The position numbers and the translations under genes were made by a program. A stretch of 64,000 nt of DNA, from NCBI GenBank assembly GCA_048882045.1, contig JBHLRZ010000002.1, positions 32,001-96,000 of the forward strand, read 5' to 3'. The notes below the pieces were generated by a model, which saw only the letters and a program-made list of their open reading frames with translations, ran no database searches and was not told where the DNA came from. Position 1 is the first letter of the stretch; each line of letters starts with the position of its first letter. Shown piece after piece: positions 6,646 to 47,876 of this stretch. This DNA comes from Candidatus Thorarchaeota archaeon. Its GTDB lineage: Archaea > Asgardarchaeota > Thorarchaeia > Thorarchaeales > Thorarchaeaceae.

Positions 6646-7854
6646 ATGACTGACACACTTGACATCAAGCAAGATTTCCATATTTTTGATCAGTATCCAG
6701 ATTTGGTCTATCTTGATTCTGCAAGTACTACACTTGTTCCAAAACCTGCTGTAGATGCTACAGCAAACTTTCTGAACTCTATAGTAGTGTCTACTCGTCG
6801 AGGAGCACACAACCTTGCAGTAAAAGGTGGAGCAATTGTCGAAGATGTCAGAAAATCCTTGGCCAAATTTCTGACTACCGAAGGACCACAGATATCATTC
6901 CAAAAGTCGATTCCTAGTGCTATTGCATCAATCGTTTATGGCTATGATTGGAAAACAATGAACAAGAACAAAATCATAGTTACCCAAAGCGAAGAGAACT
7001 CTGTTCTTGTTGCACTACTACGAGCTGCTGAAGTACTCGGTCTCACAGTTGAAACAATTCCCATTGACACTGAAGGTATCATGTCTCTCAAAGTGTTGGA
7101 AGCGACAATAGATGATGAAACTGGTCTTGTAGCAGTCGGTCATGTAACACCAGGACTTGGAGTATACAACCCAATCAAGAAGGTAGCAAAAATTGTTCAC
7201 AAGACTGATGCACTTCTACTTACAGATGCAACTCGATCTGTAGGATTCTATGATTCGATTTTATCATTAGGTTCTGACATATTGATTTTCTCAGCCAACA
7301 TAGGCCTAATGGGACCTCCTGGCTTGGCTCTTCAATGGATAGACAAGTCACTAGGAGAGAAAATTCGTCCTGGAATACTTGGGGGTTCTGCAGTTTCTGA
7401 TGTTCAAACAAATTCCTTTGAGCCAGCGTTACAACCTGACAAATTTGAACCAGGTTTCTTGAACATACCTGCAGTAGCTGGACTGGGTGTTTCCTTGGAT
7501 TATCTCACAAACCTGTATTCTATTGGATTCTACACTCATATGAAGGTCCTATCAGAATACATGCAAAAAAGACTGACAGAAGTTCCTGATATCGTTATAT
7601 ATGGCTCACCTAATGAGAAAACGACTATCTTTGGATTTAACTTGAGTCCAGAGGTCGTAAACTGTCATGACATCGCTCTGTTCCTTGACGAATCAAACAT
7701 TGCAGTCCGGAGTGGTCTTATTTGTGCTCATCCATCGGTTCAAGCAGTAGCTAACGAGGGATTAATCCAGGCATCGCTTCATGCTTACAACTCAATTGAA
7801 GACATTGATCGTCTTGTAGACACACTCATAGTGATATCCAATCAGCTTCTATAA
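6646..7854 (+). CDS. SufS/cysteine desulfurase-like class V aminotransferase homolog with degenerate PLP site
   Basis: YLDSASTT, KFEPG..N, IAVRSGLICAHP present; FSGHK replaced by FSANI and EHH by EEN. Confidence 0.8.
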   Translation: MTDTLDIKQDFHIFDQYPDLVYLDSASTTLVPKPAVDATANFLNSIVVSTRRGAHNLAVKGGAIVEDVRKSLAKFLTTEGPQISFQKSIPSAIASIVYGYDWKTMNKNKIIVTQSEENSVLVALLRAAEVLGLTVETIPIDTEGIMSLKVLEATIDDETGLVAVGHVTPGLGVYNPIKKVAKIVHKTDALLLTDATRSVGFYDSILSLGSDILIFSANIGLMGPPGLALQWIDKSLGEKIRPGILGGSAVSDVQTNSFEPALQPDKFEPGFLNIPAVAGLGVSLDYLTNLYSIGFYTHMKVLSEYMQKRLTEVPDIVIYGSPNEKTTIFGFNLSPEVVNCHDIALFLDESNIAVRSGLICAHPSVQAVANEGLIQASLHAYNSIEDIDRLVDTLIVISNQLL

Positions 7855-8145
7855 TGTAAATACAGGTGGATAGAAAACGAAGTACTGAACAATGATAGCA
7901 AGAAGAATACCACTAAAGACCAACCCTTTTCCTCTCTTATCGTTCACTCCAGTGAACCACAGAATGGCTCCTACAAGGACGACAACGAAAGCAGAGATAT
8001 TCCCGATAAAGATTAAGAAATCCCAGATTTCCATGAAGTACCCTGCAATTAGATTGGCAAAATCAGTCAGAGGACTTAGAATTGTATACATCCACATTGG
8101 TTTCACACAATGATTTACCAGTCCTGCTGAATTTAAGGACCTCAA
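7849..8145 (-). CDS. Small two-helix membrane protein, VirB2/TrbC (T4SS pilin)-like; start possibly 8097
   Basis: IGNISAFVVVLVGAILWFTG-VNDKRGKG-LVFSGILLAIIVQYF: two hydrophobic helices with a basic loop. Confidence 0.55.
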   Translation of the reverse strand: MRSLNSAGLVNHCVKPMWMYTILSPLTDFANLIAGYFMEIWDFLIFIGNISAFVVVLVGAILWFTGVNDKRGKGLVFSGILLAIIVQYFVFYPPVFTL

Positions 8146-9965
8146 AGAACTGTAACTGACTTAGCAAGATTGCGGGGCTTGTCTGGATCATAATCTTTTC
8201 TTAGTGCCATATAGTAACTGAAGAGCTGCAAAGGAACAATATAAGGCAAGATAGAAAATTCAGGTTCCATTTCCATTGGGATTGTGAATGAATAATCAGA
8301 CAGATTTGCCAAGTCGTCATCGTTCTTTTGAATGACTGAAATGATAGTAGCTCCTCTAGCCTTCATCTCCATAATGTTTCCAATTATCCTGTTTCGAGTA
8401 TCATCGTTTGGAGCAATAAAGATGACAGGATATTCATCTTGGACGAGTGCAATAGGTCCATGCTTGGATTCCCCAGCAGAATAAGCTTCAGCATGATTGT
8501 ACGCTATTTCTTTGAGTTTGAGTGCACCTTCCTCAGCAGTTGCCATCGAGATACCCCGACCTAGGAACAAAAGACTTGGTCTATCATAGAAGAGGCCTGC
8601 GAAACTCCTTGCTTTCTCCTCGTTCCGTGAAATGACATCAGAAACAAGTTCGGGCATATTATACAAGGAATCACGTTTTCTCTTGATGGTTGATGCATCA
8701 CTGATTCCTGTTATTTCACCTAATGCTAGAGCGATTAATGCAAGAGAGGTCAATTGTACCATGAAGGTTTTTGTTGCTGCGACTCCAATCTCTGGTCCTG
8801 CCTGAGTAATTATTGTATGGTCAGCATAACGAGTAATCGAGCTTCCTACAACATTGGTAATCGCTACAACCTTTGTACCAAATTCTTTGGCGTATTTTAC
8901 TGCGGTAATCGTATCTGTGGTTTCACCTGATTGTGTAATAGCAATAATACAATCTTTCTTAGACAAGGATCCATAAACAGTATCCGAAAAGTCACTTGCT
9001 AATTCAAAAGTAGGGACTATCCCAGCAATTGATGCAAACATATGTCTTCCAGCCATTGCTGCATGACCAGATGTTCCCATTGCCAACATGTATACTTTCT
9101 CAGATGAGCTAATTATCTTAGCAGCTTCATTGATAGTTTCCGGACGAAGTCTTAGTGTGTTCCTAATCGATTCTGGCTGTTCATGAATCTCTTTCAACAT
9201 AAAATGAGGGTAACCACTTTTCTGTGCTTGATCTGCAGTCCAACTTATCTTGATTGTATCCCGTTCTACTGATGATCCGTCAGAGAGCTTTTCTATTCTA
9301 ATGTCATCTGTTGTCAGGGTTGCCAGTTCACCATCCAACAACAGAATCATGTCATTGGTCATCGGAAGAAAGGCAGGAATATCTGACGACACATATGAAA
9401 CCCCAGATTTTGTTCCAATGACTAGAGGATTACCATCACGTGTACATACCATCTTCCCATCTTCTTTCGTTGACATCGCTACTATAGCATATGTTCCTTC
9501 TATTCTCTTTGAAACTTCTTTTAGAGCCTCAGCAAGACCAAGCCCGTCTTTCATATAATCCTCAAGCATATGTGGGATTATCTCGGTATCCGTTTCCGAG
9601 TTGAACTTGTGTCCTTTCTCGTTCAGCTCTAATCTTAGTTCCATGAAATTATCAATCACACCATTATGAACAACAGCAATCTCATTGTGACAATCAAAGT
9701 GTGGATGAGAATTGAGCATAGATGGGGCACCATGAGTTGCCCAGCGTGTGTGGCCAATACCAATGAATCCTGGCATCTCATCAAGATTCAGTCTTTTGTG
9801 TACTTCCTCAATTTTCCCCTTGTCCTTCTTGACGTGTAGTTTGGCATCTGAAATAGTTGTTACTCCAACAGAATCGTAACCCCTGTATTCAAGACGTTTC
9901 AGTGCTTGGTGTAGAAATGGTGCCACAACACCTCGTTTCTGCACAACACCAATTATGCCACACAT
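8142..9965 (-). CDS. glmS: Glutamine--fructose-6-phosphate aminotransferase
   Basis: MCGIIG, LEYRGYDS, GHTRWATHG, SIS domains, C-terminal PRNLAKSVTV. Confidence 0.98.
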   Translation of the reverse strand: MCGIIGVVQKRGVVAPFLHQALKRLEYRGYDSVGVTTISDAKLHVKKDKGKIEEVHKRLNLDEMPGFIGIGHTRWATHGAPSMLNSHPHFDCHNEIAVVHNGVIDNFMELRLELNEKGHKFNSETDTEIIPHMLEDYMKDGLGLAEALKEVSKRIEGTYAIVAMSTKEDGKMVCTRDGNPLVIGTKSGVSYVSSDIPAFLPMTNDMILLLDGELATLTTDDIRIEKLSDGSSVERDTIKISWTADQAQKSGYPHFMLKEIHEQPESIRNTLRLRPETINEAAKIISSSEKVYMLAMGTSGHAAMAGRHMFASIAGIVPTFELASDFSDTVYGSLSKKDCIIAITQSGETTDTITAVKYAKEFGTKVVAITNVVGSSITRYADHTIITQAGPEIGVAATKTFMVQLTSLALIALALGEITGISDASTIKRKRDSLYNMPELVSDVISRNEEKARSFAGLFYDRPSLLFLGRGISMATAEEGALKLKEIAYNHAEAYSAGESKHGPIALVQDEYPVIFIAPNDDTRNRIIGNIMEMKARGATIISVIQKNDDDLANLSDYSFTIPMEMEPEFSILPYIVPLQLFSYYMALRKDYDPDKPRNLAKSVTVL

Positions 9966-10068
9966 CTCTAGGATACCTCATAAACTGTAGAAGTCCAATG
10001 TAGAATAGTGCAAAAAGGGTTTGTATCGTGTCACAATTGAACTGTACGACAGTTTGTATCAGAAAAAA

Positions 10069-10380
10069 CTAGCCAGTCAACTCAATTTCTATGTACACAG
10101 AGTCAGGAATTCGAACTCGCATTATCTGTCGGATCGCTCTTTCGTCAGCATCGATATCAATTAGACGTTTGTGAACCCTCATTTCCCATTTGTCCCATGA
10201 CTCAGAACCCTGACCACAAGGTGTCTTCCTAGTAGGAATCACCATTCTACGAGTGGGAAGTGGAATCGGACCTGCCATACGGACTCCTGTCTTACGAGTA
10301 ATCCTCTTGATTTGATTACAAACACCATCTAGATGTTCAGTGCTTGTGCTTGATAGTCTGATTCTTGCTCTTTGAGTCAT
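10069..10380 (-). CDS. rps10: 30S ribosomal protein uS10
   Basis: [32 protein letters not shown]. Confidence 0.98.
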
Positions 10381-10522
10381 ATGGAATATCCCTCACAGTA
10401 GGGGGTGTCCGAGGCTTCCCAAATGTGAACCGGATAAAAACCTTGTCTTGTGTAGGAGGAACTCTCAAGTTGGAGTAAAAGTAATGTCCATAAGGAATGC
10501 TCACAGTTGGACCTGTAAGTGA

Positions 10523-11323
10523 ATGCAATTGAAAGGTCTCACACTTGTGAAACTTGGTGGATCAGTCATAACACACAAAGGAGCATCTCCACCCACAATA
10601 AATGAAGAGAATATCATTCGTATTGCCGAGGAACTATCAACACACAAAGATGGTCTGATTGTGGTTCTAGGAGGGGGTGCTCATGGACATCAAGTCGCCC
10701 ACTCTTATGGTTTTGGAAATTCTTCCACAAAAAGTGAACGATTACTGATGGGAATCCCACATATACGTCACAACATGTCGATTCTAGCAATGGAGGTTGA
10801 ATCAGTACTAAATGACAAGGGAATACCCACAGTCGTGATTCCTCCATTTACTGTTTCGATATTAAAGAATAGAAAAGTCAAAACCTTCTCGACTACAATA
10901 ATGGAAAAAGTGCTAGAAAGTAAATCCGTAGTACTGACTCATGGAGACGTGTGCTTTGATGAGGAGAGGGATGCTTCTATACTAAGTGGTGACACAATCG
11001 CAGTATATCTTGCCAAGACACTTGCTACGAAATCAGTGTACATTGGAACCGATGTTGATGGAGTTCTAGATGACGATCCATCATTGAATCCATCTGCAAA
11101 GTGTATTCCGATTATAAATCAAACTAACAAAGATGAAATCTTGAAAAAAACAGGTCCTTCCAAGAACACCGATGTCACAGGCGGTATGTCAAAGAAGGTT
11201 AACGAGCTCCTTGAATTGGCAAAACATGATATCGATGTCGTCATTTTCAATTTGACTGTACCTGGTCGTCTAACATCCCTGTTATCTGGAAAACCAACTA
11301 TCTGTACAAGGATAATGCCGTAA
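10523..11323 (+). CDS. ipk: Isopentenyl phosphate kinase (amino-acid kinase family)
   Basis: KLGGSVITHK, GGGAHGH, HGDV, ILSGD, DVTGGM..K. Confidence 0.9.
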   Translation: MQLKGLTLVKLGGSVITHKGASPPTINEENIIRIAEELSTHKDGLIVVLGGGAHGHQVAHSYGFGNSSTKSERLLMGIPHIRHNMSILAMEVESVLNDKGIPTVVIPPFTVSILKNRKVKTFSTTIMEKVLESKSVVLTHGDVCFDEERDASILSGDTIAVYLAKTLATKSVYIGTDVDGVLDDDPSLNPSAKCIPIINQTNKDEILKKTGPSKNTDVTGGMSKKVNELLELAKHDIDVVIFNLTVPGRLTSLLSGKPTICTRIMP

Positions 11324-11324
11324 T

Positions 11325-14300
11325 TTATGAAATCAGTGTTGACACATTGTCGTCCATTGTCTTCACAATCAGATTGCTAGGTGTAGTAACATTGTCTTCG
11401 AGATATTCTGACGCAGTCAGAACACAGACAACCTTTGTAGATTTACACGTTCTACAAGCCACATCGCTGTGTAGATGAAGCAACGTATTCAGTTGCTGCT
11501 GATTTGGAAATATCACAAAAGATGTATCTCCAACACATAGATCATAGTATCCATGGTCTCTAGATACTCTCTCGTTTCGTTCTTTTAGAGCCATTTCTAT
11601 AACATGGACAGCACTTCTCTTCAAATTCTGTAGAACTGAGGAATTAACCAACCAAAGACCCTCATCAAGCTCTACAAATTGAGAACCATTTTCAACACGG
11701 AGTGCGATTAGGACTTCATCAGCCAACAGCTCTGTTAAAGCTCTCTTACCCTCCTCAATATTCAATGGAGCTGCTCTGCCTTTGAGAGACTGCAAAGCAG
11801 TTGTTTCAATGAATTCCAATAGGTCTTCCCATTTCACCTGACCGTTTGAGATATCAACCAAATCCTGAATCAGACCGAACCATAGTCTAATCTGAATTGC
11901 ACGATTTGTTGCTGATCCCACTTCATGCATGGCCTCAATCAGATCCGTTTTGTTTGTAGATTCAGTATCCTCTGTTAATTTGGATTGGACAGTAGATTCA
12001 CTGGAAAGATCGGAAGTACCACTCAAACCCTCGAGAATCGAATCAAGGGAGCTAGGAAATGCCGAAACTACGCTAACTTCATTGAACTCCTCAGAAGTGT
12101 CCATCATCTCTCTCAATTTTGCTGCCGCAACACTTCCTCTAACAATAACAAATAGTTCTCTTACACCATTTTGGAGTCTTCTCATCTGGTTCTTTATCTC
12201 ATCCAAAGTTGACTCCATTGAAGAAGCTCTCAGATGCTCTGGAATAATCACTATTGCTTTATCTTCAATGATGATATCCGGAAATTCTTGTATATCTGAT
12301 GATGTGATATCTTCTATCCCAAGCTTTTCATAGATGTATTCGACGATAACACGTCTTACTGCATTCAGAGCTTGCCCAGGAAGAGTAAACACAAATCCTC
12401 CCGGTACTAATGCCAAGGCCTCCCTTTCTACTGTTCCTAATGAAACAAGATTTCGAATAACTTCTGAAATATCATCATCCAAATTACTTGGATCTAACGT
12501 CGATAGTAGATTTCGAATCTCTTCCTCGGTCGCCCAACCTTCAGCAGCTAGAAAAGCCACTACATGTCTTCCCAATTTGTCAAGTCTATTGAACACGAGT
12601 GTCTGAGCTTCAACCACATGGGCTGGTTTATCATCATCCTTGGGTGAATCTACCGCATCATTAGCAGTTTCATTATAATCCAATATCGTTTCTTCACTTT
12701 GTGGTAGTACTACAGCCAGCGACTCGGTTTCTGATGGAACGATGAAAGGTTTGGTAGCAATTTCAAATGTTTGAGTATGCGGAATGCTCATCAATGCTCT
12801 TCCTCGTTTTAAGACTCGTAGATACCGTTCCTGTTGATCATCTATTGATAGAAACCTAGCACCAACCTGACTATCATAGGGCAGTCTGAACACAATCTTC
12901 GTTGAAGTGTTTGCGAGAATATTAGAAGATATGTTAGGTCGAGTTGATATCACAACTACTCCCTGTCCAGTTGCACGTTGGAGCATCACCATGGATTCTC
13001 CTGTAGTCACATCTGCAGCTGAATGCCTAGTATAGCTCTCAGGAACAAGATTACTGGCTTCTTCTAGAACTACAACATGGTGCAATCCATCAGATATTCC
13101 TCGTTTCATAGAACTGTCAAAGATTCTTTTGGCAACGAGATTGTAGAATAATCGGGCAGCATCCATTCCTCCAGTCCTTGCTATGAAACTCAAATCGAGA
13201 ATTACTCGTTTCTCGAGGAAACTCGAAATCTTTACAGCTTCAGATCCTCCTCGTAGTATAGACCCCAGAGGTTCTCTACTTAGAACCTCAAGCCGATTGA
13301 GAAGTGCGTCTCTCGTCATACTTCCTGTTCTGTCTTTACTAGCTAGTTCAGAAACCTTACGAAGAAGGGCCTGCACTGAATTGTCCTTATCTAATGAATT
13401 CACGACAGCACTTACTGAATCCCTGAGTAGTTTTTCCATTGCTGGTGAGAGTTCAGAGGAGTCCCCTCTCTCATTGAGTAGTTCCTTTAGAATGACGAAG
13501 GTCGAATGAGCACAATTTTCATCACCCCTCAGTTCAGGATCAATAAGATCTATAGTGAATGAACTGTCATGCCCCGGCTTCAAGACCGAAACTTCGGAGT
13601 CACTCAAGCTCACTAAATCATAATACTCTGATCCCTTGACATCGAAAATCCACCAAGGTATGTTTGTCTGACTACTCAACTGTGCCATAAGATGTTTCAC
13701 TAATGTGGTCTTTCCAGTTCCTGTAGCTCCTAAGACTGCAACGTGCTCCCTTAGCCACTCTGTTCTCAGTCCAACACTGGATAATTTGCGACCTCCAAAG
13801 ACAGTTTCTGCTATGACTAAATCATTATCCATCAGTTCCTTAGCCGGTACTGGAAATACTGGAGTAATGGCTGGTGCGATAACAGGTAGCTGTTGCATTG
13901 GAGTATTAACAAATGATGTTAAATTGGTTAAATGCAATCGCTGGCTCTTCAAATGTCTTCTAGAAAGCAACCTGAAAGCAGTACGTTTTCTGATTTTCCT
14001 GATGGCCAGTTTTATTGAATCACTTCCTCCCCAGATGGAGTACACAAGCCCAATGACACCATCCAAATCATGGGTAGTCTTTCTGTTGAGAGGGGATTTT
14101 ACAATGAAATACACAGTTGTATCAAACCAACCCACGCTGTCTTGGATTTCCTCATACCTAGTCAATAATCTCTTCTTAACTGCATGATCTTGAAGTGATT
14201 CCTCTCTTCGTCGTTCCTTATCCTGAATGCTTCTCCATTGTCCTTCCAGATTTCTCTTTTCTTTACCTGGTTTTGCAGCTGAAAAGACACATGTCATACA

Positions 14301-15104
14301 GGCCGTATATCCTTGTCTAAGTGCAGTAAAGATGAAGGTGCCAACCTGTGTTGTGTCGATTGATGGATAGGTTCGAGGATTTCCTTCTAGAAGCAACAGA
14401 GTTGAAGATTCAGAGTCTTCTACTGATTTATAATCGTCATTATTGAGAATACCATGGACGTGACTCGCAGCAACTTCCAGTAATTGATCACCCTCGAGGA
14501 GATTCAATTCAACATTGTTTAGAGATGCCAATAGAATGGCTTCAGTTCTAGTTGCTTCTCTTTGTAGAATATCCTTAATCTGTTTTACAGAATGACCTGT
14601 TGTTGTAATGAAGATACGTAAATAGGGCTCTCCTTTTGAAACTCCAGCTTCAAAAGCCATGTTGACTGACTTGTTCATTCCTGCACGCATAGCCAATAAC
14701 ATAGTTTCATTGTATCTTGGTTTGCCATTCTCATCTACATAGACAGAACCTGAAACAGACACAATATCCAAGCAACAAGTTCCGATGACATAATCATCCA
14801 GCTGAATTTGTAGGACATTACCATCTACAGAGATTAAAGGCGTCTGAAAACGAATTTTTCGAATAGTCAATAATGAACCTGTTAGAAGAGGTAGTATACA
14901 GATTATCATCTCTATTGACATCTTAAGAGGGATTTGAGGTTGTGCGACCATTCCAATGAGGGGTAGCAAATATACCACAAACAAATAGAACAGAACGATT
15001 GTTGTTTCAATCATCCAACTCAATCTTATCAAAGACCAAATTCTGGTCCTTCTGGAAGAAGAATCTGTTTTTGATTCATCTGCACTCGATAAGTAAAGTG
15101 GCAT
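11325..15104 (-). CDS. Membrane-anchored VirB4/HerA/FtsK-superfamily ATPase (DUF87-type) with long C-terminal extension
   Basis: Two N-terminal TM segments; HVAVLGATGTGKTT, IFDVKGSEY, VVVLEEA, ILANTSTKIVFRL. Confidence 0.8.
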   Translation of the reverse strand: MPLYLSSADESKTDSSSRRTRIWSLIRLSWMIETTIVLFYLFVVYLLPLIGMVAQPQIPLKMSIEMIICILPLLTGSLLTIRKIRFQTPLISVDGNVLQIQLDDYVIGTCCLDIVSVSGSVYVDENGKPRYNETMLLAMRAGMNKSVNMAFEAGVSKGEPYLRIFITTTGHSVKQIKDILQREATRTEAILLASLNNVELNLLEGDQLLEVAASHVHGILNNDDYKSVEDSESSTLLLLEGNPRTYPSIDTTQVGTFIFTALRQGYTACMTCVFSAAKPGKEKRNLEGQWRSIQDKERRREESLQDHAVKKRLLTRYEEIQDSVGWFDTTVYFIVKSPLNRKTTHDLDGVIGLVYSIWGGSDSIKLAIRKIRKRTAFRLLSRRHLKSQRLHLTNLTSFVNTPMQQLPVIAPAITPVFPVPAKELMDNDLVIAETVFGGRKLSSVGLRTEWLREHVAVLGATGTGKTTLVKHLMAQLSSQTNIPWWIFDVKGSEYYDLVSLSDSEVSVLKPGHDSSFTIDLIDPELRGDENCAHSTFVILKELLNERGDSSELSPAMEKLLRDSVSAVVNSLDKDNSVQALLRKVSELASKDRTGSMTRDALLNRLEVLSREPLGSILRGGSEAVKISSFLEKRVILDLSFIARTGGMDAARLFYNLVAKRIFDSSMKRGISDGLHHVVVLEEASNLVPESYTRHSAADVTTGESMVMLQRATGQGVVVISTRPNISSNILANTSTKIVFRLPYDSQVGARFLSIDDQQERYLRVLKRGRALMSIPHTQTFEIATKPFIVPSETESLAVVLPQSEETILDYNETANDAVDSPKDDDKPAHVVEAQTLVFNRLDKLGRHVVAFLAAEGWATEEEIRNLLSTLDPSNLDDDISEVIRNLVSLGTVEREALALVPGGFVFTLPGQALNAVRRVIVEYIYEKLGIEDITSSDIQEFPDIIIEDKAIVIIPEHLRASSMESTLDEIKNQMRRLQNGVRELFVIVRGSVAAAKLREMMDTSEEFNEVSVVSAFPSSLDSILEGLSGTSDLSSESTVQSKLTEDTESTNKTDLIEAMHEVGSATNRAIQIRLWFGLIQDLVDISNGQVKWEDLLEFIETTALQSLKGRAAPLNIEEGKRALTELLADEVLIALRVENGSQFVELDEGLWLVNSSVLQNLKRSAVHVIEMALKERNERVSRDHGYYDLCVGDTSFVIFPNQQQLNTLLHLHSDVACRTCKSTKVVCVLTASEYLEDNVTTPSNLIVKTMDDNVSTLIS

Positions 15105-15160
15105 AAATTATTCCTCTTTGATAGCCTCTGGAACCAAGACATCGTACTTGTGCTCACCAT

Positions 15161-16921
15161 ATGAACACCCCTCAAATGTTCAATGTGAAGTCCACACACT
15201 ATAGGAGAATAAAAACCTACAATCAGACTGAATATCTGACTATTGCCCAGGGGGTGTCCATCATCAGAAGGTCACATTGGTTTCCAGTATTGTTAGCAAT
15301 CATTATTCCTCTTCTCTATGTTTCAATGACATCTGATTTTGTGACAGCTGATGATGAAATACAGGTGTTTCGAGGTAGTACAATAAGAATACAGGTCACG
15401 ATTCTTCAGAATGGTAGTTATGGTGAGCCTGTCCTAAATCAGCCAATCTATTACTTCGACCAAACTTATAACATGTATCTAGGTTTTTCAATCTCTGACC
15501 AATACGGGATTACATGGATTGATTGGGAAATACCATTGAATCATCCTCTTGGACTCACAGTTCTTAATGCAACCTTCTATGGGAATGCAACCTTCTCTTT
15601 GGCACCCTCTTTCCAACAAGTAACCATATCAGTCGGGGCTCGAACTCACCTAGAAATTGACCAGATCCCCACAGAACTCTCACTAGGAGATGTGTTGTCA
15701 TTCGATGTCCGACTAGAAGATGACATGAATATCTCTCTTCAAAATCAGATTCTCGAGGTAACTTTAGATGATTCTCACCTTTCTTTCATCACTACAAATA
15801 GCTCAGGAATGGCTCACTTCAATACGATTATTGATGAGAGATTTTCATTAGGAATCCAATCACTGAAAATCAACTATGCTGGATCACAAAACTACTCAGA
15901 ATCATCTTTTGAAGTCTTTACAGAAATTAGTAGTCCTATCTCGATTGCTGTACTTATATCAGATACTGCTGTAATTGGATCAAACTTGCTCATCGAAGCC
16001 ACAATAACAGACTTTCTTAACAGGTCTCTCTTAGATTCGACACTTCACTTCACAGATACGACCTCAAATCATAGTTTCTCTGTTCGAGTAGATGACGAAG
16101 AAAAAGTCACTTTTCAGTATCTAATTCAAGGACCTCCAGGATTGCATCAAATTGTCATAGATATCTTGGACAATCCGTTTATATCTAACAATCAATATAC
16201 ACTGAACTTTACTGCATGGTCAAAATCTGAGATAGTTCTGGTGAACTCTAATGTAGAACACTATGCTTCTCCAAGTCAAGAAGTAACACTTGAAGTCAGA
16301 CTTACGGACTGGTATGGAAATGGCTCTTTGAAAGACCTTCATCTGTTCATTGATAGTGAAGCACAAATATCAAGAACTACCAATAGTGAGGGATTAGCAA
16401 TCTTTTCCTTTAAAGCTTCTATGATTGAATCACAGTACAACATATCCATTTTCTACGCTGGTAACACTAGTCGATTCGAACTTCCTACAAATTACAATTA
16501 CATCCTTTTTGTCACTACTCTGATGCCTATAACAATCAATCTGGACTCGTATGAGATAGTTGCACCTTTGCATCAGATATCGATACAGCTTATAGTAAAA
16601 GGTTTCAATGGAACATTACTGAGAGGAGTATGGGTGAATTTCAATTGGCTCTCCTCCAATTTCAATGCTGAAAGTACTGAAAGAGGGTTAATAGTTCTTC
16701 AAATTGCAATTCCACCAGTGAGTGGAAGTTACTATTTGGATTATGAATCAAAACCTACGAGTTTTGTTGATACGACATCTGGTTCCATATTGATTGAAGT
16801 GGAATCAAGTGACATCAGCTCAATTGAAGGAGTCGGAATTACGGGAATGATATTTGCCTTATGTGCATCAATAGGATTGATAGCTGTTCCAGTTATTAGA
16901 CGTAGGTATCTTGTAGGCTAA
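15161..16921 (+). CDS. Cell-surface Ig-like repeat protein with signal peptide and C-terminal TM anchor (start possibly GTG 15254)
   Basis: Hydrophobic N-terminus, repeated TNSxG.A.F / YAG motifs, many N-x-S/T sequons, C-terminal TM + RRR. Confidence 0.75.
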   Translation: MNTPQMFNVKSTHYRRIKTYNQTEYLTIAQGVSIIRRSHWFPVLLAIIIPLLYVSMTSDFVTADDEIQVFRGSTIRIQVTILQNGSYGEPVLNQPIYYFDQTYNMYLGFSISDQYGITWIDWEIPLNHPLGLTVLNATFYGNATFSLAPSFQQVTISVGARTHLEIDQIPTELSLGDVLSFDVRLEDDMNISLQNQILEVTLDDSHLSFITTNSSGMAHFNTIIDERFSLGIQSLKINYAGSQNYSESSFEVFTEISSPISIAVLISDTAVIGSNLLIEATITDFLNRSLLDSTLHFTDTTSNHSFSVRVDDEEKVTFQYLIQGPPGLHQIVIDILDNPFISNNQYTLNFTAWSKSEIVLVNSNVEHYASPSQEVTLEVRLTDWYGNGSLKDLHLFIDSEAQISRTTNSEGLAIFSFKASMIESQYNISIFYAGNTSRFELPTNYNYILFVTTLMPITINLDSYEIVAPLHQISIQLIVKGFNGTLLRGVWVNFNWLSSNFNAESTERGLIVLQIAIPPVSGSYYLDYESKPTSFVDTTSGSILIEVESSDISSIEGVGITGMIFALCASIGLIAVPVIRRRYLVG

Positions 16922-16928
16922 GAAGAAA

Positions 16929-17037
16929 TGGTGCTCCGGCCGGGATTTGAACCCGGGTCGGGGGATCGAGAGTCCCCCATGCTGGGCCGGACTACAATCG
17001 GTATCATTGCAGGAATTCTACAACATTCTACCGGAGC
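16929..17037 (-). tRNA. tRNA-Glu(CUC) with a 31-nt non-canonical intron (16997-17027) at position 10/11
   Basis: Acceptor GCTCCGG/CCGGAGC, anticodon arm GGGGA-CTCTCGA-TCCCC, T-loop TTCAAAT, encoded CCA; removing the intron restores D-stem GTGT/GCAT. Confidence 0.92.
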
Positions 17038-17123
17038 CAGGTATGGTATGCCAGTCCGGAGCGCAAGAGCCCCCTTTTGAGCTCTACAAATAAGCCTTTC
17101 TCAATGGATAAACAAGATTCTTG

Positions 17124-17333
17124 CTATGGTGTACCAAATAGCTGAGTTAGGCTACTCCAACTGTCCTGCAAGAGTTGAAGTAATCCTTCTACAACATCCT
17201 GTGCCCATCCTGTTGCTTGGAGGATGACAGCAATCACAATAGAAACGGTCACGACAGCTAGACCTAGAAGAAGACTTTCTTCAACTAACGGTCCGCCTCT
17301 CTCATCTTGGATTAAACCGGCATCCTCTGTCAT
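17124..17333 (-). CDS. Flp-like type IV pilin with class III signal peptide
   Basis: DERG|GPLVEE followed by a hydrophobic helix (E at +5). Confidence 0.75.
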   Translation of the reverse strand: MTEDAGLIQDERGGPLVEESLLLGLAVVTVSIVIAVILQATGWAQDVVEGLLQLLQDSWSSLTQLFGTP

Positions 17334-17383
17334 AGACTCTTGTTTGTCTTCGTCCTTTTAAAGCCCCCAAAGAATTGAAAACC

Positions 17384-19072
17384 CTATGATTCGGTTCCAA
17401 TGAAGTTCAGTGGATGGCCCTTGGACCACATACGTTCGTTAAGCAATTCCAAATCTGACCTATAGGATCCTGCCGTCAATATCTCAGTCAGACTCCCAAG
17501 AGCTGACACATGGCTCTCGAATCCCGAATCTCTGGCATAGGATAGAAATGCGCCATCATGAGCCCAGCTACCATGACCAGTTCTGGAGTCATAGACTACA
17601 TTGAGTCCAGAGAACTGTAAAAGCCCATTTACTTTCTTTCTGCGAATTTCAACAATTTCTTTTACTCTGCGTTTGGAATCACCAGGTATTGGTCTTTCAA
17701 GGGTGACAATTAGATCCATCATTGACAAACTGGTATCCTGTATTCCATGGTTTAGTTTCCATCGAGAAATGAGACTGGATGATGAACTACTATGACAGGT
17801 CTGCATGGTTCGAAGACCTGCTGCAATTGCCTGAAAAAGTGCATTACTGTGTTCTGCTGTCTGAATCTCACCCAGAATCAGGTAGTCCGGAGACCTATGT
17901 AGACACTTGACAATCTCACTACTTTTGTCAGATCTATTCGATTGTTCATCTACAGGATTTACTCTGAACCTAACCTGATGATGCTTATCTTGATATCTAC
18001 TTTCTAAAGCGTCTTCAATGTAGATTTTTCTCCACCAACGGGGTGTTGTTAAATCTAAAGCATTAAGAAGTGTCGTCTTGCCAGTACCTGGTCCTCCTGT
18101 TATTGTAATATTGAACCGACACGCAACTGCAAGAAGTAGAATAGATGCTATCTCAGGTGTGATTGTTTCATTTGAAATTAAATCTGCTATCGTAAACGGA
18201 CGATTCCTTGCACGACGTATTTCAAGATGCAGTCCGTCTGGACTAAGCGGAGGAATACTAACTGAAAACCGTAATGAAGCTCCAAGAATCTCAAACTCCA
18301 TCTTCAGAGAAGGATTACTCCTGTCTAGGTGAAGATTACTTTCAGCACGAACAAACGTGATAATCTTGGGTACGTCACTCTTGGATAACGTAATAGTCGT
18401 ATCACATCTTCCTAGCTTTTGATGGTCAAAGTACAGACATGCTTCAGGACTATCAAGATAGATTTCTTCTACCTTGTCATCTAGGATAATTGGGATTATT
18501 GGTCCAAGAACACTCCTTCGCTGAGCAACGATCTCAGATAGACTTCTTCTAGTAGTTTCATTTATCTCAGGGATTAGCTTCAAAATATGTTCAGAGATAA
18601 TATCAGTAGTATCTTCAAGTCGCTGAGTGATTTTCTGTCTTCTTGAAACCGAGTTCTGTTCGAAGCCATTCTCCGAATCACTCAACTCTTTTACTAATGA
18701 GAATTCAAGAGCTGTTCTTACAATTGGAATGGAATGATATTGCACTCTTCCTTCTTTACCTTTGAACAGAGCCAGATATGACTGGACCTTGTAGATTTCT
18801 AGAAAATCATCTAACTCCTCAAAAAGCGGATTGTTCCCTCCTATGAACACAGTTTCCCATTCATCCACATACCATGGAGGATTTGGTTGGTACAATTTCC
18901 CAATGTCACAAAAGTGAAGAAAGCCGCGTTCTGCTTCAATCAACATAACACGACTTTCACTCGATGACGACTTCATAACCTGTTTGAGAATACGACATCC
19001 TGAATCAAATCTATCAGGGCAACCCTCACATCTGCCAACTGGGCATCTGATAAAATTCGTTTCTGAATTCAT
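17384..19072 (-). CDS. TadA/CpaF/VirB11-family secretion ATPase
   Basis: GGPGTGKTTLLNAL, IEDALE, RSPDYLILGEIQ, TCHS; N-terminal Cys cluster. Confidence 0.88.
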   Translation of the reverse strand: MNSETNFIRCPVGRCEGCPDRFDSGCRILKQVMKSSSSESRVMLIEAERGFLHFCDIGKLYQPNPPWYVDEWETVFIGGNNPLFEELDDFLEIYKVQSYLALFKGKEGRVQYHSIPIVRTALEFSLVKELSDSENGFEQNSVSRRQKITQRLEDTTDIISEHILKLIPEINETTRRSLSEIVAQRRSVLGPIIPIILDDKVEEIYLDSPEACLYFDHQKLGRCDTTITLSKSDVPKIITFVRAESNLHLDRSNPSLKMEFEILGASLRFSVSIPPLSPDGLHLEIRRARNRPFTIADLISNETITPEIASILLLAVACRFNITITGGPGTGKTTLLNALDLTTPRWWRKIYIEDALESRYQDKHHQVRFRVNPVDEQSNRSDKSSEIVKCLHRSPDYLILGEIQTAEHSNALFQAIAAGLRTMQTCHSSSSSSLISRWKLNHGIQDTSLSMMDLIVTLERPIPGDSKRRVKEIVEIRRKKVNGLLQFSGLNVVYDSRTGHGSWAHDGAFLSYARDSGFESHVSALGSLTEILTAGSYRSDLELLNERMWSKGHPLNFIGTES

Positions 19073-19145
19073 CTAGTTAATCACCTTTCTAGGATTCCAA
19101 TTATTGTCCAGACGATTCAAAGATAATCTCATAGCAAAATGAGAA

Positions 19146-20207
19146 CTATTGAACTGCTTCATGAGACAGTTCAATTATCTTCTTCATCATTCCAAAGTGA
19201 TCACGAATGCTATACTCTGCAACCTTTGTTGCATTTGATGCAAGCTTTTGAGTAAGAACTGCACGCCTATTGTGTTGAATTGCTATCACTCTATCACTTG
19301 CATAGGCTACTGAAACCGTGAATATGAAAGGATTCCGTCCACCCCGTTTGGATGCTGGTATCATATCAAGAACCTCCAATACTTTGTTTCTTAGAGCGCT
19401 TTCGTACTCCTTTACATTCCACCCTCTTGCTTGTACCTTACTTGCCACTTTTGGGTCGTTCATCAGCATTGATATCACTCTTGGGACATAGTCCTCTGGC
19501 TTTCGGATTTTAGGAGAATATCCGGTCAATGATTTCAGTCTAAGTGCCTCTCTTACAATCGCTCTAACATTAACGCGGTGTCCACATTTTTCGAAGACTT
19601 CAGCTATCTCATCAAGGGTTATTGGTGCCTCATTTTCAAACTCTCTTACAGCCATCAAAAGACACACCGCTATCAACAGTATGTTGTTACTCACTCTATG
19701 AGGCGATTCCGACACCACTTTCTTGTACAGATATGCTGTACGATCCCGGACCTGTTCATTTAGCATAAGAAGTTTGGACACATGGTTCAGTGTCCTGAGA
19801 GCCCGGTATTTCGCCTCGTTCTTTCCAATTCGGATTCTGGTACTATAGATTGTTTTCAGCCGTTTGAACTTCTTCTGCATTCTTCCTGACAATGCTTGGC
19901 CTTGTGCATCTTGGAAATATTTGTCCTTGTGAAAACCAATGTAGCTGCCAAGTCCATCTACGATATGCATTCGATTTCCTAATGATACATAGACACTAGC
20001 ATCAGGAGAGTCGTCATTAGGTCGTTGTCCCATCTGATATGTTGGCAAAACGTACTCTCTTGAAAGTACTAAACCACATTCAGCGCATACTATGTGTCCC
20101 TGACTGGTGATTAGAAAACCACTGCAGTCCGGACAGGATTTCAAACCTATCGTTTGAGATTCACATATTCCATTAGTCAAAACCACACCCATTAAAGAGA
20201 TGTACAA
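19146..20207 (-). CDS. Transcription initiation factor IIB (TFB) family protein, divergent
   Basis: CPDC..VCAECGLV Zn ribbon, cyclin repeats, LTQK..S.ATKVAEYSIR HTH. Confidence 0.8.
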   Translation of the reverse strand: MYISLMGVVLTNGICESQTIGLKSCPDCSGFLITSQGHIVCAECGLVLSREYVLPTYQMGQRPNDDSPDASVYVSLGNRMHIVDGLGSYIGFHKDKYFQDAQGQALSGRMQKKFKRLKTIYSTRIRIGKNEAKYRALRTLNHVSKLLMLNEQVRDRTAYLYKKVVSESPHRVSNNILLIAVCLLMAVREFENEAPITLDEIAEVFEKCGHRVNVRAIVREALRLKSLTGYSPKIRKPEDYVPRVISMLMNDPKVASKVQARGWNVKEYESALRNKVLEVLDMIPASKRGGRNPFIFTVSVAYASDRVIAIQHNRRAVLTQKLASNATKVAEYSIRDHFGMMKKIIELSHEAVQ

Positions 20208-20339
20208 TCACTCCTAACTAACTTTCAGATATTATATATACACTCACACGGACTACTAGTTCATCCGAATGGATTCTTGTCGACATAGAACAGGTCCTGT
20301 CGGCTTGGTCAGAAAGAGATAGCCGAAAGTATTCTCATA

Positions 20340-20705
20340 TCACATAATTGCTAAGAAAAATTTGTCAGAACTAAAAGTGCTAATTTGACTCGTAGTAGGT
20401 TTTCCAAGGGAAAAAATCAGTCTTAGTCCTCCTATAGACCCGATAACTTCCAACCCTTCTTTCAGATTCTTCTTGAATACACCACCTTCCACATAGAGCT
20501 TGGCCTGGTCTCCTTTGGGAATGGACTTTGAATCAATAACAACACTGATCGAATCGTTAGTATTCAGTGTATCACAAAGTGCATCGGGTAATTCCAATGT
20601 GAATGTAGCACCTTCACTTTTCGAAGATACCTTTAACAACTTCAATCTTCTAGTTTCTGTTTCATCAATAGAATCAATGATTGCATCTTTGAGTCGAATC
20701 ACCAT
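20340..20705 (-). CDS. rpo8: RNA polymerase subunit Rpo8/RPB8-like
   Basis: OB-fold size and pattern with signature SIGGLRL (RPB8 SFGGLLM). Confidence 0.7.
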   Translation of the reverse strand: MVIRLKDAIIDSIDETETRRLKLLKVSSKSEGATFTLELPDALCDTLNTNDSISVVIDSKSIPKGDQAKLYVEGGVFKKNLKEGLEVIGSIGGLRLIFSLGKPTTSQISTFSSDKFFLAIM

Positions 20706-20829
20706 TTGAAATACACACTCTATCTTGTTAGACTCTTTGATTGACGGCTAGTCGATGCGAATTAAACCTACCGTTGAAACCATGTGCTGTTTTTTAGGAA
20801 GGAAAATGACAGTCTTTTGGTGTAGATAG

Positions 20830-22641
20830 GTGAAGAAAAGGAAGCGCGCACTAATCCCTATGTCTCTTTTACTCATAACATGTCTTATTGTCCCAGTCAA
20901 TGCCTTCTACTTCAATTTCGAGTACTTTGAAACTGACAAGCTTGTATACGAGGTTGGCGAAACGATAAACATGGTAGCAAAATTGACTGCAGATTTTAGC
21001 CCTGAGGGTTGGTGCTATGTTTCATTTGCCGTAGTTACAGATCTTGGTCCAGCATTTGCTGATGAATATTTTATTTCACCTTCTCCTGATGTTCGTTATC
21101 TGAACTCATCGTATATTATCTCACCAGACCATACTGCTCCGAACATTACCGGAGTCCAGTCATTTGTTCTCTTCAACGTCGAAATATTCGATACTGTTTC
21201 ACAAGGTGCAGGTGATAACATCGAAATCACGATATTACGAGGACAACTAGATGTGGTCCCAGTGTCACTTCTCTCTATTCAGGCTGGGATTGACAGTTCC
21301 CTCATATTCAATGTGGAGAGTGTACACAATAGCGGCATAGTCTATGCCAACGATATGGTCCATCTCCATATAGAAAACGAAAGTTCTCAGACTATTCTTG
21401 ACATTGATACAACAACAAATACAATGGGACAAACAACATTGAACTGGACTGATTCATTTGGGCCTCCAGGATTGTATAATGTTACCATTTCCAGTGTTGG
21501 AAACGAGGATTTCTTGCCTTTCTCAGAATCATTCCAGGTCACTGTTTTACCAGCTCTATCAAACTTGTCTATAGTTTCTGTGCCATCATCAGTTCACTGT
21601 CAATCACCTGATGGAACTTACATAGATCAAGCAGATATTACTGTTGAACACATCAATTTAGACTCAGTCCCTGTTAATGACAGTTTGGTCATTTGGGAAA
21701 CAAGTTTTGGAAGCGGTTTTATGACGAGCCAAGGGGGAGGAGAGTATGCTGCTACTATTCCATTTCAGACTAGTCCAGGGAGTCATTTGGTCAACATCAC
21801 AGCTACCAATCCAAGATATCAAACCGTCCAAAGATCAGTTCTTGTTGATGTCCTTGCCAACACTTTGTTGTTCACACCAACTCAAACTACTTGGAGTATA
21901 ACAAGGGGAATGAATGCTACAATTGGTTTTTTTGTTGAATCCGAAATCGACTGGAATCAATCCGTGCGGATAAAATTCACTGATGAGAACAACGGATTTT
22001 CTTTTGAGTCAGATATCCTTCCTGGATTCACAAGTTATCTCGAAATATCCACTTCGTCTGATTTCTCGGTGGGTACTCACACCTTCAATGTATCCTCTGA
22101 AAGTATCTACTATTCGTTTCAAAACAGTCCCCAAATAGACCTAGAAATAATAGGGTTTCTGGGTATGACAACATCTATTGATTCTGCATTCTATGGAGAA
22201 ACCTTGAACTTGTCTCTCAGCATTCATGATGACGCAAATGATACCGTTGAATTGGTCGATATCTATGTATACTACGGTAACAGTCTATTACCATTCTCGA
22301 TAATTAGTGACGCCAACGTAAGTATACAACAATGCTTTGCTCTTCCTACATGGATTTCTCCTGGTCTACATAACATTACAATCCGAATTGAAAGCGCCTT
22401 CTATCATCAAATAAACCAGACAATTACTGTTCAGGTCTGGATGCGAACAAACATTACAATCGTAATTACGCTCAACCATGAAAGCAGCCATAGTCAAGCG
22501 GTTGATTGGAGAAGTTCATCTGGTTCTATCATTCGTCCTCCTCCTATTTTACTGAGCGGAATGACTTCAGCTGAACCTTCTACTGCTCTTTCTACTTCCC
22601 TTGAAAGTTGTCCAAGATTAAGTTCAGGAACTAATATCTGA
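20830..22641 (+). CDS. Secreted Ig-like/S-layer-type glycoprotein
   Basis: Signal peptide MKKRKRALIPMSLLLITCLIVPVNA, PG.YNVTI/PG.HNITI repeats, many sequons. Confidence 0.75.
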   Translation: MKKRKRALIPMSLLLITCLIVPVNAFYFNFEYFETDKLVYEVGETINMVAKLTADFSPEGWCYVSFAVVTDLGPAFADEYFISPSPDVRYLNSSYIISPDHTAPNITGVQSFVLFNVEIFDTVSQGAGDNIEITILRGQLDVVPVSLLSIQAGIDSSLIFNVESVHNSGIVYANDMVHLHIENESSQTILDIDTTTNTMGQTTLNWTDSFGPPGLYNVTISSVGNEDFLPFSESFQVTVLPALSNLSIVSVPSSVHCQSPDGTYIDQADITVEHINLDSVPVNDSLVIWETSFGSGFMTSQGGGEYAATIPFQTSPGSHLVNITATNPRYQTVQRSVLVDVLANTLLFTPTQTTWSITRGMNATIGFFVESEIDWNQSVRIKFTDENNGFSFESDILPGFTSYLEISTSSDFSVGTHTFNVSSESIYYSFQNSPQIDLEIIGFLGMTTSIDSAFYGETLNLSLSIHDDANDTVELVDIYVYYGNSLLPFSIISDANVSIQQCFALPTWISPGLHNITIRIESAFYHQINQTITVQVWMRTNITIVITLNHESSHSQAVDWRSSSGSIIRPPPILLSGMTSAEPSTALSTSLESCPRLSSGTNI

Positions 22642-23609
22642 TCGACAGATTTTCCCAAACTTTTGACTGCATCATCCGGGAATGGCCATAGAGTCCTTAA
22701 TCTCAAAGATCTATACTTGGATCCAGCACTGCTAGCTAAGAGTTCTTCAACTGAGCGAGAAGTAGAACCATATGATACAATTCCCCATTCAGCTGAAACC
22801 GGTCCAGAAATAAGGTAGTCTTCTATGGCATCCTTAGCATTCCTAATCTTTTCTGAAAGTCTCCTAACCAACTCATCATGAACCTGTGGATCAGCAGTTT
22901 TTCTGAATCCTTGGTTGTTATGAGTAGAACCAGTCACAAGTAGGTCATGACCATCTCCAAATCTAGGCATCAGTGCATGACCTTCTGAATCAACACCTCC
23001 AAAGGGTTGAGTTCCAGATTTAGCAAACCTCCTCTTTACTGTGACATCCAATGTTTGATCAACAACAACTTTCTCCCGAGAGTGTGCGACTACCTCATCG
23101 GACAATAGAATCACTGGATGTCTGAGTCTTTCAGATAGTGAAAAAGCCTTGATTGTCAACTCGTAGGTGTCCTGTGCAGAATTAGGTGCTAGAACTACAC
23201 TTTCATAGTCCCCATGAGACCCCCACCTAGCTTGCATGAAATCGCCTTGAGCAGCCTTGGTGGCTTGTCCAGTACTAGGACCTGCTCTTTGAACATCCAC
23301 TATGACACAGGGTGTTTCAGTCATTATTGCATACCCGATATTTTCCTGCATAAGACTAAACCCTGGCCCGGAAGTGGCGGTCATTGAAAGCTTTCCTCCC
23401 CATGAGCTTCCAATGACAGCAGAAATTGCAGCTATTTCATCTTCCATCTGGAGATATACTCCATCTACTTTGGGGAGTTTTAACGACATTATTTCTGCAA
23501 TTTCTGAAGCAGGTGTAATCGGATAACCTGCAAAAAACCTACATCCCGCAGCAAGGGCCGCTTCCGCACATGCCTGATTTCCCTGCCAAAATCCGATGGT
23601 CTTAGTCAT
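22494..23609 (-). CDS. korA: 2-oxoacid:ferredoxin oxidoreductase alpha subunit
   Basis: GNQACAEAA, AGYPITPASE, QMEDE, TATSGPG, QRAGPSTG, ELNLGQ. Confidence 0.93.
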   Translation of the reverse strand: MTKTIGFWQGNQACAEAALAAGCRFFAGYPITPASEIAEIMSLKLPKVDGVYLQMEDEIAAISAVIGSSWGGKLSMTATSGPGFSLMQENIGYAIMTETPCVIVDVQRAGPSTGQATKAAQGDFMQARWGSHGDYESVVLAPNSAQDTYELTIKAFSLSERLRHPVILLSDEVVAHSREKVVVDQTLDVTVKRRFAKSGTQPFGGVDSEGHALMPRFGDGHDLLVTGSTHNNQGFRKTADPQVHDELVRRLSEKIRNAKDAIEDYLISGPVSAEWGIVSYGSTSRSVEELLASSAGSKYRSLRLRTLWPFPDDAVKSLGKSVDQILVPELNLGQLSREVERAVEGSAEVIPLSKIGGGRMIEPDELLQSTA

Positions 23610-24404: not shown

Positions 24405-24419
24405 CTTCTAGAATTCCTC

Positions 24420-47873: not shown

Positions 47874-47876
47874 AGA

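Follow-up and report, generated by a model that had tools for sequence, protein, structure and literature searches.

Two putative membrane systems, a TFB-linked pilus-type gene set and a VirB4-like ATPase set, in the core chromosome of a Candidatus Thorarchaeota archaeon

We analyzed a stretch of 64,000 nucleotides from the genome of a Candidatus Thorarchaeota archaeon (assembly GCA_048882045.1, contig JBHLRZ010000002.1, positions 32,001 to 96,000; hereafter the window), in which a first reading, made from the sequence alone, had proposed one dispersed hybrid of a type IV secretion system (T4SS) and a Tad pilus, with its parts scattered among housekeeping genes. The six genes flagged by this sequence-only reading are all real and all conserved. 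Rather than one machine, the region probably holds two separable, chromosomally fixed Asgard membrane systems, which are neighbors only in this lineage and a few others; we put the probability of this explanation at roughly 0.6, and the estimate includes the assignment of the first system, judged from gene content and order, to "subclade 4D" of the archaeal type IV pilus-like systems, as its Asgard form. Module A (17124–20705) is a pilus-type gene set with a paralogue of transcription factor B (TFB), and module B consists of a 1259-aa VirB4-like ATPase, a surface glycoprotein encoded divergently from it and, probably, a small membrane partner; the role of either module is putative. Genomes are denoted by G (G000 being the source genome), fetched loci by L, Asgard families by f and contigs of the source genome by C.

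Genes of the pilus-type module and their conservation

Module A includes a TadA/CpaF-type ATPase of 562 aa that belongs to the T2SSE family (17384–19072, − strand; Pfam T2SSE, E-value 6.6e-19, over the cut-off). Among solved structures it is closest to an archaeal GspE-type protein (PDB 2oap, 1e-23) and to CpaF (1.8e-22), which agrees with the TadA/VirB11-type ATPase first proposed here; the NCBIfam TadA-family model matches at 7.5e-28, below its cut-off. Homologues with 38–46% identity are found in 37 of 41 relatives, representing 12 of 14 genera. The N-terminus carries a cluster of four cysteines (Cys10, 15, 18, and 26), kept in all three genus sequences examined. N-terminal cysteine pairs are present in families f9 and f12 and lacking in f4, f5, f6, f7, and f10.

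Starting 50 bp past the ATPase gene, a small gene (17124–17333, −) encodes a membrane protein of 69 aa with a single helix, a candidate prepilin. Residues P15, E18, E19, L22, G24, and W43 are invariant in nine sequences from six families. The candidate cleavage site R12-G13|G14 (R-G|G-P-L-V-E-E) places a glutamate at position +5, which is likewise invariant across the six families, and the motif shared between loci reads (G/A)-(S/G)-P-(L/I)-(V/L/M)-E-E, followed by one hydrophobic helix. We label the protein Flp-like because of its size, its single helix and this invariant G|xxxxE site. The gene is single-copy in the source genome; counterparts of 55–86 aa lie beside the ATPase module in five of 14 loci from other families (L027, L028, L032, L034, and L038) and also in L085. 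NCBIfam returned no matches for the small proteins, for the Ig-like proteins discussed below or for the TadBC proteins. Of the Flp-type pilin initially suggested, the Flp-like site and the single helix hold, and no known pilin family is matched.

On the same strand, a gene for a divergent TFB/TFIIB paralogue of 353 aa (19146–20207, −; TFIIB 1.1e-6, zinc ribbon 0.0011) ends 74 bp upstream of the ATPase gene; against the NCBIfam TFIIB model it scores 3.6e-17, below the cut-off. It is the divergent seventh member in the genome, with 27.9 bits over one repeat vs. 55–84 bits over both repeats for the six other open reading frames. The protein shares 36–43% identity with ATPase-linked TFB-like proteins of eight other families, compared with only 24–26% for the canonical TFBs encoded in the same genome, and is therefore an old, separate orthologous group. 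Upstream of it lies the gene for an Rpo8/RpbG-like protein of 121 aa (20340–20705, −), for which the RNA_pol_RpbG match (E-value 0.0089) is below the cut-off; its positional counterparts in two other families exceed it (RpbG 1e-8 in L027, 2e-6 in L032).

To place these genes in context, 14 loci around T2SSE ATPase homologues were fetched from 11 other families. The recurring gene order is Rpo8/RpbG or LSm, the TFB-like gene, the ATPase, a membrane protein of ~280 aa, a membrane protein of ~240 aa and the small protein. A TFB-like gene lies at ≤2 kb from the ATPase in eight of the 14 loci, from seven families (L027, L028, L029, L030, L032, L033, L034, and L038), and in eight (L027, L028, L030, L031, L033, L034, L035, and L039) the next gene after the ATPase encodes a TadB-like protein of ~280 aa, with weak T2SSF matches in three of the seven proteins scanned (those of all these loci but L034). 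The sequence-only reading had listed TFB and rpo8 with glmS, rps10, and ipk as interleaved housekeeping genes. While glmS, rps10, and an amino-acid-kinase family gene, for which ipk is a plausible label, do lie between the flagged genes, the conserved gene order indicates that the TFB paralogue and the Rpo8-like gene are members of module A, not housekeeping interlopers.

A TadB/TadC-like platform gene, adjacent to the ATPase in other Asgard families, is absent from the module A locus in this genus. A search for TadC elsewhere, as had been suggested, identified a fused TadBC protein of 503 aa on contig C32; it matches a TadB-like profile at 1.5e-40, its second half matches TadC-like proteins, and it scores 39.3 bits, over the cut-off, for T2SSF (PF00482). 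Contig C22 encodes an A24 prepilin peptidase of 160 aa with both Asp motifs (PF01478, 39.1 bits, over the cut-off). From these matches we conclude that the platform is relocated in the genome, not lost. The absence of a relaxase, integrase, TadB/C, and prepilin peptidase noted earlier holds for the window; at the level of the genome, it does not apply to TadBC and the peptidase. The relocated platform locus (L071; G000 contig C32, 1111–9184) contains Nre, a secreted, C-terminally anchored protein of 447 aa, the fused TadBC and a six-helix protein of 216 aa, with two fusions of an Mrr-type nuclease domain to Rpb5_C further along; Pfam at E ≤ 1 gave nothing usable for the 216-aa and 447-aa proteins.

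If module A operates as its gene content suggests, the A24 peptidase would cut the 69-aa protein after G13, and a hexamer of the ATPase, docked on TadBC, would assemble the product of ~56 aa into a short filament or pseudopilus. For its transcription, the module A set would rely on the private TFB paralogue.

In the window, genes for an Arf-like GTPase, a 306-aa protein of no known type and a Roadblock/LC7 protein form a triad at 23823–26284 (−), 3.6 kb from the TFB-like gene. The same triad lies near the Flp-like gene in f12 (L028 3126–5522) and f28 (L085 1–2054), and a Roadblock gene alone is found at the edge of the locus in f3 (L027 2–574). GTPase-Roadblock pairs steer type IV pili in Myxococcus, and by analogy the triad may be a lead toward regulation.

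The VirB4-like ATPase and the two-helix protein

The largest of the flagged genes (11325–15104, −) encodes a membrane-anchored ATPase of 1259 aa from the HerA/FtsK superfamily (Pfam DUF87, 6e-14). Two N-terminal transmembrane helices (residues 28–44 and 58–74), which we take to recall VirB3-VirB4 fusions, are followed by a VirB4-like N-domain, a P-loop domain and a C-terminal extension of ~470 aa. Pfam at E ≤ 1 gave nothing usable for the C-terminal 459 residues or the N-terminal 84 residues.

An AlphaFold2 model of residues 85–800 (mean predicted local distance difference test score, pLDDT, 79.9) was compared with solved structures. In a Foldseek search the best ten matches are all full-length TrwK/VirB4 of R388 (E-values 4.8e-21 to 1.3e-14, over ~800 alignment columns), followed by HerA (3.8e-14) and by TrwB and the VirB4 C-domain alone (~5e-11). 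VIA-align of the P-loop domain gave Z-scores of 29.8 for DndH-C, 29.7 for the VirB4 C-domain, 27 for TrwB, 26 for HerA, and 17 for FtsK motor domains. In these comparisons with the two-domain model, only TrwK also spanned the N-domain, with 591 residues aligned over model positions 6–716; the identity is 12–13%, and the global root-mean-square deviation is ~22 Å because the domains sit differently. The protein is thus VirB4-like in its predicted fold, ahead of HerA, and together with the two N-terminal helices this supports the membrane-anchored VirB4/HerA ATPase of the first reading.

Sequence models are less specific. TIGR00929 (VirB4) gives 27.2 bits vs. a cut-off of 643.1, and the best NCBIfam model is CedD with 54.7 bits vs. 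a cut-off of 600; CedB gives 17.6 vs. 700. Across the whole genome, no protein reaches the cut-off of a CedB, CedD or VirB4 model. As a control, the window holds a genuine NurA-HerA pair (46707–49391, +), 32 kb from the VirB4-like ATPase. The CedD model gives this HerA 75 bits, and since a genuine HerA scores higher than the 1259-aa protein, the CedD match is generic and the label "CedD-like" was dropped. The nearest clusters in the ESM Atlas are archaeal TrwB_AAD_bind/DUF87 proteins (0.93–0.94), which we regard as a lead only.

Of 301 Asgard genomes, 198 have homologues of the ATPase (E ≤ 1e-20), and these genomes represent 50 of 70 genera; the 103 genomes in which none was found include 21 of the 90 of high quality. 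Beyond this family the homologues have unrelated housekeeping genes as neighbors (ribosomal, CBS, PGK, ATP-synthase). N-terminal hydrophobic helices are predicted in 15 of 16 tabulated loci; the gene in L081 is split, with the helices on the N-terminal piece, and L086, with an internal stop, shows none. In G036 (L023 8236–11997, −) the ATPase gene lies between atpA, which contains an intein, and atpB. In f6, a four-helix protein of 172 aa is encoded directly upstream of the ATPase (L019 11703–12221, −); it carries a GGAD(S/A)K motif positioned as in the A24 peptidase of the source genome (BLASTP E-value 0.002, 25 residues) and, on this resemblance, may be a prepilin-type peptidase.

The candidate small partner of the ATPase is a two-helix membrane protein of 82 aa (7849–8097, −). 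Its conserved start is the ATG at 8097 and not at 8145, as two orthologues have in-frame stops upstream of that methionine; orthologues in the genus are 75–90% identical. AlphaFold2 predicts a helical hairpin (residues 2–49 and 53–75, pLDDT 89.6) with a basic loop. Foldseek against the PDB returned 0 matches at E ≤ 0.001, and VIA-align against 48,161 chains returned 703 at Z ≥ 5, all of them generic helical hairpins (ESCRT-III, histidine-kinase DHp, coiled coils). As the hairpin matches generic hairpins of any kind, the comparison with the VirB2 fold that had been proposed as a check cannot discriminate. Profile searches of PDB sequences with 21 and 66 family members found no pilin. TrbC/VirB2 is the only recurring Pfam family, below the cut-off in three of 21 members (best E-value 0.032) and in six of 64 distant relatives (best E-value 4.6e-4). 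An hhalign comparison of the family with P0197 aligned residues 57–102 at 39% probability and missed the T4SS_pilin domain of that protein at 353–422; it was set aside. Of the VirB2-like protein originally described, the hairpin is predicted, and the relationship to VirB2/TrbC is unproven.

The two-helix family occurs in 126 of 301 Asgard genomes. In the source genome it is represented by four close copies and a further, tandem-duplicated one, each of them surrounded by housekeeping genes; the tandem-duplicated member (L070; G000 contig C62, 5810–6313, +) lies between atpA-UDG and atpB. The distance between the two-helix gene and the ATPase gene is 3.2 kb here and 5 kb in f12 (L087). Four f15 genomes of one genus (L082 and, similarly, L081, L083, and L084) carry the two-helix gene immediately ahead of the ATPase in the same orientation, at 62 bp in L082, and in f4 it is 29 bp upstream (L026). 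One of the copies is probably the partner of the ATPase. In that case the ATPase, as VirB4, CedB or CedD do, would power extraction and assembly of the small protein; alternatively, it could move a polymer, possibly DNA, across the membrane. DNA uptake by this region, which had been suggested together with cell-cell contact, is pure inference.

Surface proteins, tRNA-Glu and chromosomal setting

Two further genes had been described as Ig-like surface proteins. The first (Ig1; 15161–16921, +) is divergent from the VirB4-like ATPase gene and encodes a sequon-rich protein of 586 aa with N- and C-terminal hydrophobic helices and 14 N-X-S/T sequons, for which an Ig-like match (Big_3_5, 7.5e-7) is below the cut-off. 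A counterpart with 27% identity is the divergent neighbor of the ATPase in a genome of the same order (L017), and a sequon-rich secreted neighbor of the ATPase is seen only in f1, f2, and f12 (L087). The second (Ig2; 20830–22641, +) is a secreted, sequon-bearing protein of 603 aa that starts with a hydrophobic leader and matches no Pfam family at E ≤ 0.01 (FlgD_ig 0.014 only). It is kept at 44–63% identity in six genus members, with a single weak match outside the family (L087, E-value 1.3e-4). Pfam at E ≤ 1 yielded nothing usable for either protein. The 3′ end of the Ig2 reading frame overlaps the convergent POR-alpha gene (22494–23609, −) by 148 bp (22494–22641), and its last ~45 residues, which are of low complexity, may not be real. 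The Ig-like character is weak for Ig1 and without a Pfam family for Ig2. We consider these proteins poor evidence for either module, and Ig2 only a candidate for membership in one of them.

A tRNA-Glu(CUC) gene, read at 17037..16929 (−), contains an insert of ~32 nt after U8, a non-canonical intron position; the 5′ exon GCTCCGGT precedes the insert. The acceptor, anticodon and T arms fold (z −3.3). The insert is common to three of six genus members. ARAGORN misses the gene here and in L012, L015, and L016, and calls a tRNA gene of 76 nt at the same place in L011, L013, and L014 (sequence from the call onward); Rfam gives 27 bits vs. a gathering score of 29. The tRNA is real, as first annotated, though ARAGORN and Rfam at its gathering score miss it.

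The genes of the window are those of a core chromosome, including MCM, GINS, RFC, Cdc6, NurA-HerA, ribosomal proteins, an Arf-like GTPase and Roadblock proteins. The GC content is flat over the flagged region (0.39–0.43), and the whole 20 kb is collinear, with every gene kept at the protein level, in six genus members; every key gene has relatives in further Asgard families. Relaxase, coupling protein and integrase genes are absent among the genes of the window. Because of the core synteny and the flat GC content the region is not a mobile-element remnant, an option that was discarded. Further along the window, an AbiEi/AbiEii-type toxin-antitoxin pair (32161–33652, +) coincides with a dip in GC content (0.37) and has core genes around it.

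One machine or two, and comparison with known systems

Whether the two modules form one machine can be judged from their distribution. Genome G025, which is 96% complete and belongs to the same order, combines the VirB4-like ATPase with an Ig1-like divergent neighbor and the two-helix family and shows no T2SSE match. Conversely, G026 and G037 (97–98% complete), G033, and G035 have the T2SSE gene and no VirB4-like match. In f4, f5, f6, f7, f8, f13, and f15 the two ATPase genes are on different contigs or 40–270 kb apart, and they are close only in this genus, in G249 (f28) and in G068 (f12). The two ATPase sets thus dissociate across genomes, and the proposal of a single hybrid T4SS/Tad surface machine does not survive this comparison. 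In its favor, the parts all fit into 15 kb and keep their collinearity in six genus members, and in G249 the TFB-like, VirB4-like, Flp-like, and T2SSE genes lie within ~16 kb. Collinearity within the genus is, however, uninformative on function, because the whole 20 kb is collinear, housekeeping genes included. We consider a single machine very improbable.

Several observations nevertheless weigh against two independent systems as we describe them. The two ATPase genes are 2.3–3 kb apart in 21 of 25 genomes of this genus, and 15 kb apart in G068. In G249 the VirB4-like ATPase is immediately preceded by a TFB-like gene, the Flp-like gene lies at a distance of 2.3 kb, and ~9 kb separate the T2SSE gene from the VirB4-like ATPase; this genome is the strongest point against full independence of the modules, and given the arrangements in G249 and G068 some functional tie between them may exist. 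As to the pilus character of module A, none of nine Flp-like members matches Pfam Flp_Fap or Class_IIIsignal at E ≤ 10, and the consulted part of Makarova, Koonin and Albers (2016; PMC4858521) reports no pilins in 4D loci. As to module B, paralogues of the two-helix protein sit among ribosomal, SecY/EMC3, and ATP-synthase genes. Outside f1, the ATPase (E ≤ 1e-20) is present in 25 of 50 two-helix-positive genomes vs. 126 of 224 overall (hand tally), and among the 19 genomes of f12, 18 have the two-helix family and five have the ATPase. The co-occurrence of both genes expected by the sequence-only reading is therefore not seen genome by genome, and what supports their pairing is direct adjacency in two further families (f15 and f4).

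An arrangement like that of Ups pili, Ced and TFB3 would accommodate the proximity of the modules: two separate machines would co-operate, the pilus joining cells, the VirB4-like module moving DNA and the TFB paralogue activating both. The Ups and Ced complexes of Sulfolobales are distinct and under joint control by TFB3 (PMC11823120, PMC11868833, both as far as accessible), all four functional classes lie within 13 kb here, and in G249 a TFB-like gene directly precedes the VirB4-like ATPase. Yet no Ted model reaches its cut-off any more than Ced or VirB4 models do, the CedD model favors the NurA-linked HerA, and no VirB6/CedA-like channel is seen among the annotated neighbors (no family model was searched). 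The available text of PMC11823120 describes TFB3 only as an activator of the TFB family. TFB3 is truncated, and the paralogue here is full length. On balance this arrangement is unlikely. The VirB4-like ATPase could instead be a housekeeping DNA pump with an FtsK-like role in division or segregation, unrelated to the two-helix proteins. That it is usually single-copy among core genes in the 198 Asgard genomes, and that the scattered two-helix paralogues show no genome-level co-occurrence with it, would fit such a role. The N-domain, however, matches VirB4 and not FtsK, the motor of which reaches Z 17 vs. 29.7 for the VirB4 C-domain; moreover, the two-helix gene adjoins the ATPase in two further families, a surface glycoprotein neighbor occurs in three, and about a third of the genomes (103 of 301, 21 of them of high quality) have no detectable copy. 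We judge a housekeeping pump to be distinctly unlikely. For module A, a transcription-linked ATPase system that is no longer a pilus, an alternative raised for 4D by Makarova and colleagues, is suggested by the tight and ancient tie of the ATPase to the TFB paralogue, Rpo8 and often an LSm gene, and by the departure of the platform gene from the locus in this genus. A cytoplasmic role would not need the Flp-like protein, the TadB/TadC-like proteins and the A24 peptidase, all of which are kept, and we hold this alternative to be quite improbable.

The literature listings and abstracts consulted (subscription journals and bioRxiv supplements being outside that scope) contain no account of either module in Asgard archaea. 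The published association of a pilus-type ATPase with a TFIIB paralogue and Rpo8 is limited to two Thermoproteales genera, where it was left unexplained; its presence across Asgard families, together with a candidate filament subunit, turns it into an old, testable system. In module A, a paralogue of a general transcription factor may serve a single membrane machine, which would be a rare situation. Most Asgard genomes have the VirB4-like ATPase as a fixed part of the core chromosome, sometimes in an operon with the two-helix protein; it is a candidate for a conjugation-type apparatus that has been domesticated outside Crenarchaeota. By analogy with the Ups-Ced-TFB3 system of Sulfolobales one may speculate further that Thorarchaeia, and in a looser form other Asgard archaea, carry a chromosomal apparatus for DNA exchange or cell contact, composed of a Flp-type contact pilus and a VirB4-like translocase with a VirB2-like two-helix subunit, both activated by a private full-length TFB paralogue that would have been inherited together with Rpo8 since before the Asgard-Thermoproteota split. 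We regard this as doubtful; if true, the closest prokaryotic relatives of eukaryotes would have a regulated chromosomal DNA exchange system.

Among described systems, the 4D set of Pyrobaculum and Thermoproteus resembles module A. According to the consulted part of PMC4858521 it consists of an ATPase with an N-terminal cysteine domain, a protein with 4–5 transmembrane segments, a TFIIB homologue and RPB8; the TFIIB variant is called specific to these two genera, and a possible transcription-related role is suggested. By this description module A shares with 4D the T2SSE ATPase, the TFIIB homologue in the same predicted operon and, in most Asgard families, a short TadC-like membrane partner; the small Cys-bearing N-terminal domain of the ATPase and the Rpo8-like gene beside the operon are possible further parallels. 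It differs in spanning at least eight families, in including the conserved Flp-like protein and, in this genus, in having the platform fused (TadB plus TadC, 503 aa) and on another contig instead of next to the ATPase. The part of a 2026 paper that was available places Rpo8 only in Thermoproteota and Asgard archaea, which matches the range of the Rpo8-TFB-ATPase link.

Module A is also comparable to Tad/Flp pili in its CpaF-related ATPase, two TadB/C-type proteins, A24 peptidase of 160 aa and predicted mature single-helix subunit of ~56 aa with a glutamate at +5. Flp prepilins have a site of the form G|xxxxEY. The motif here is G|(G/S)P(L/I)(V/L/M)EE, outside the Flp_Fap and class III signal families at the threshold given above, a TFB paralogue and Rpo8 are part of the locus, and the filament is putative.

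For module B, TrwK/VirB4 of R388 is the best structural match over both domains (Foldseek E-value 4.8e-21); differences are the identity of 12–13% and the lack of VirB6, VirB8, VirB10, VirD4, and relaxase here. The Ced (CedA, CedA1, CedA2, CedB, CedD) and Ted (TedA–D) systems, crenarchaeal DNA importers with VirB2-like pilins, a VirB4/HerA-like ATPase and the aid of type IV pili, had been summarized correctly in the sequence-only reading, as judged from the accessible portions of PMC9905601, PMC11868833, and PMC11823120; in those portions Asgard archaea have 0 occurrences in each paper. Compared with Ced and Ted, all Ced models score far below cut-off, the ATPase has an extra C-terminal extension of ~470 aa, the two-helix family is multi-copy and the apparatus is putative. 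The likeness lies in a membrane-anchored ATPase of the HerA/VirB4 superfamily with the transmembrane, N-domain and ATPase layout of CedD (PMC11868833, in the part consulted), in a small two-helix protein that, like CedA1, has no signal peptide, in a chromosomal location without a relaxase, and in the type IV pilus-type set and TFB paralogue nearby.

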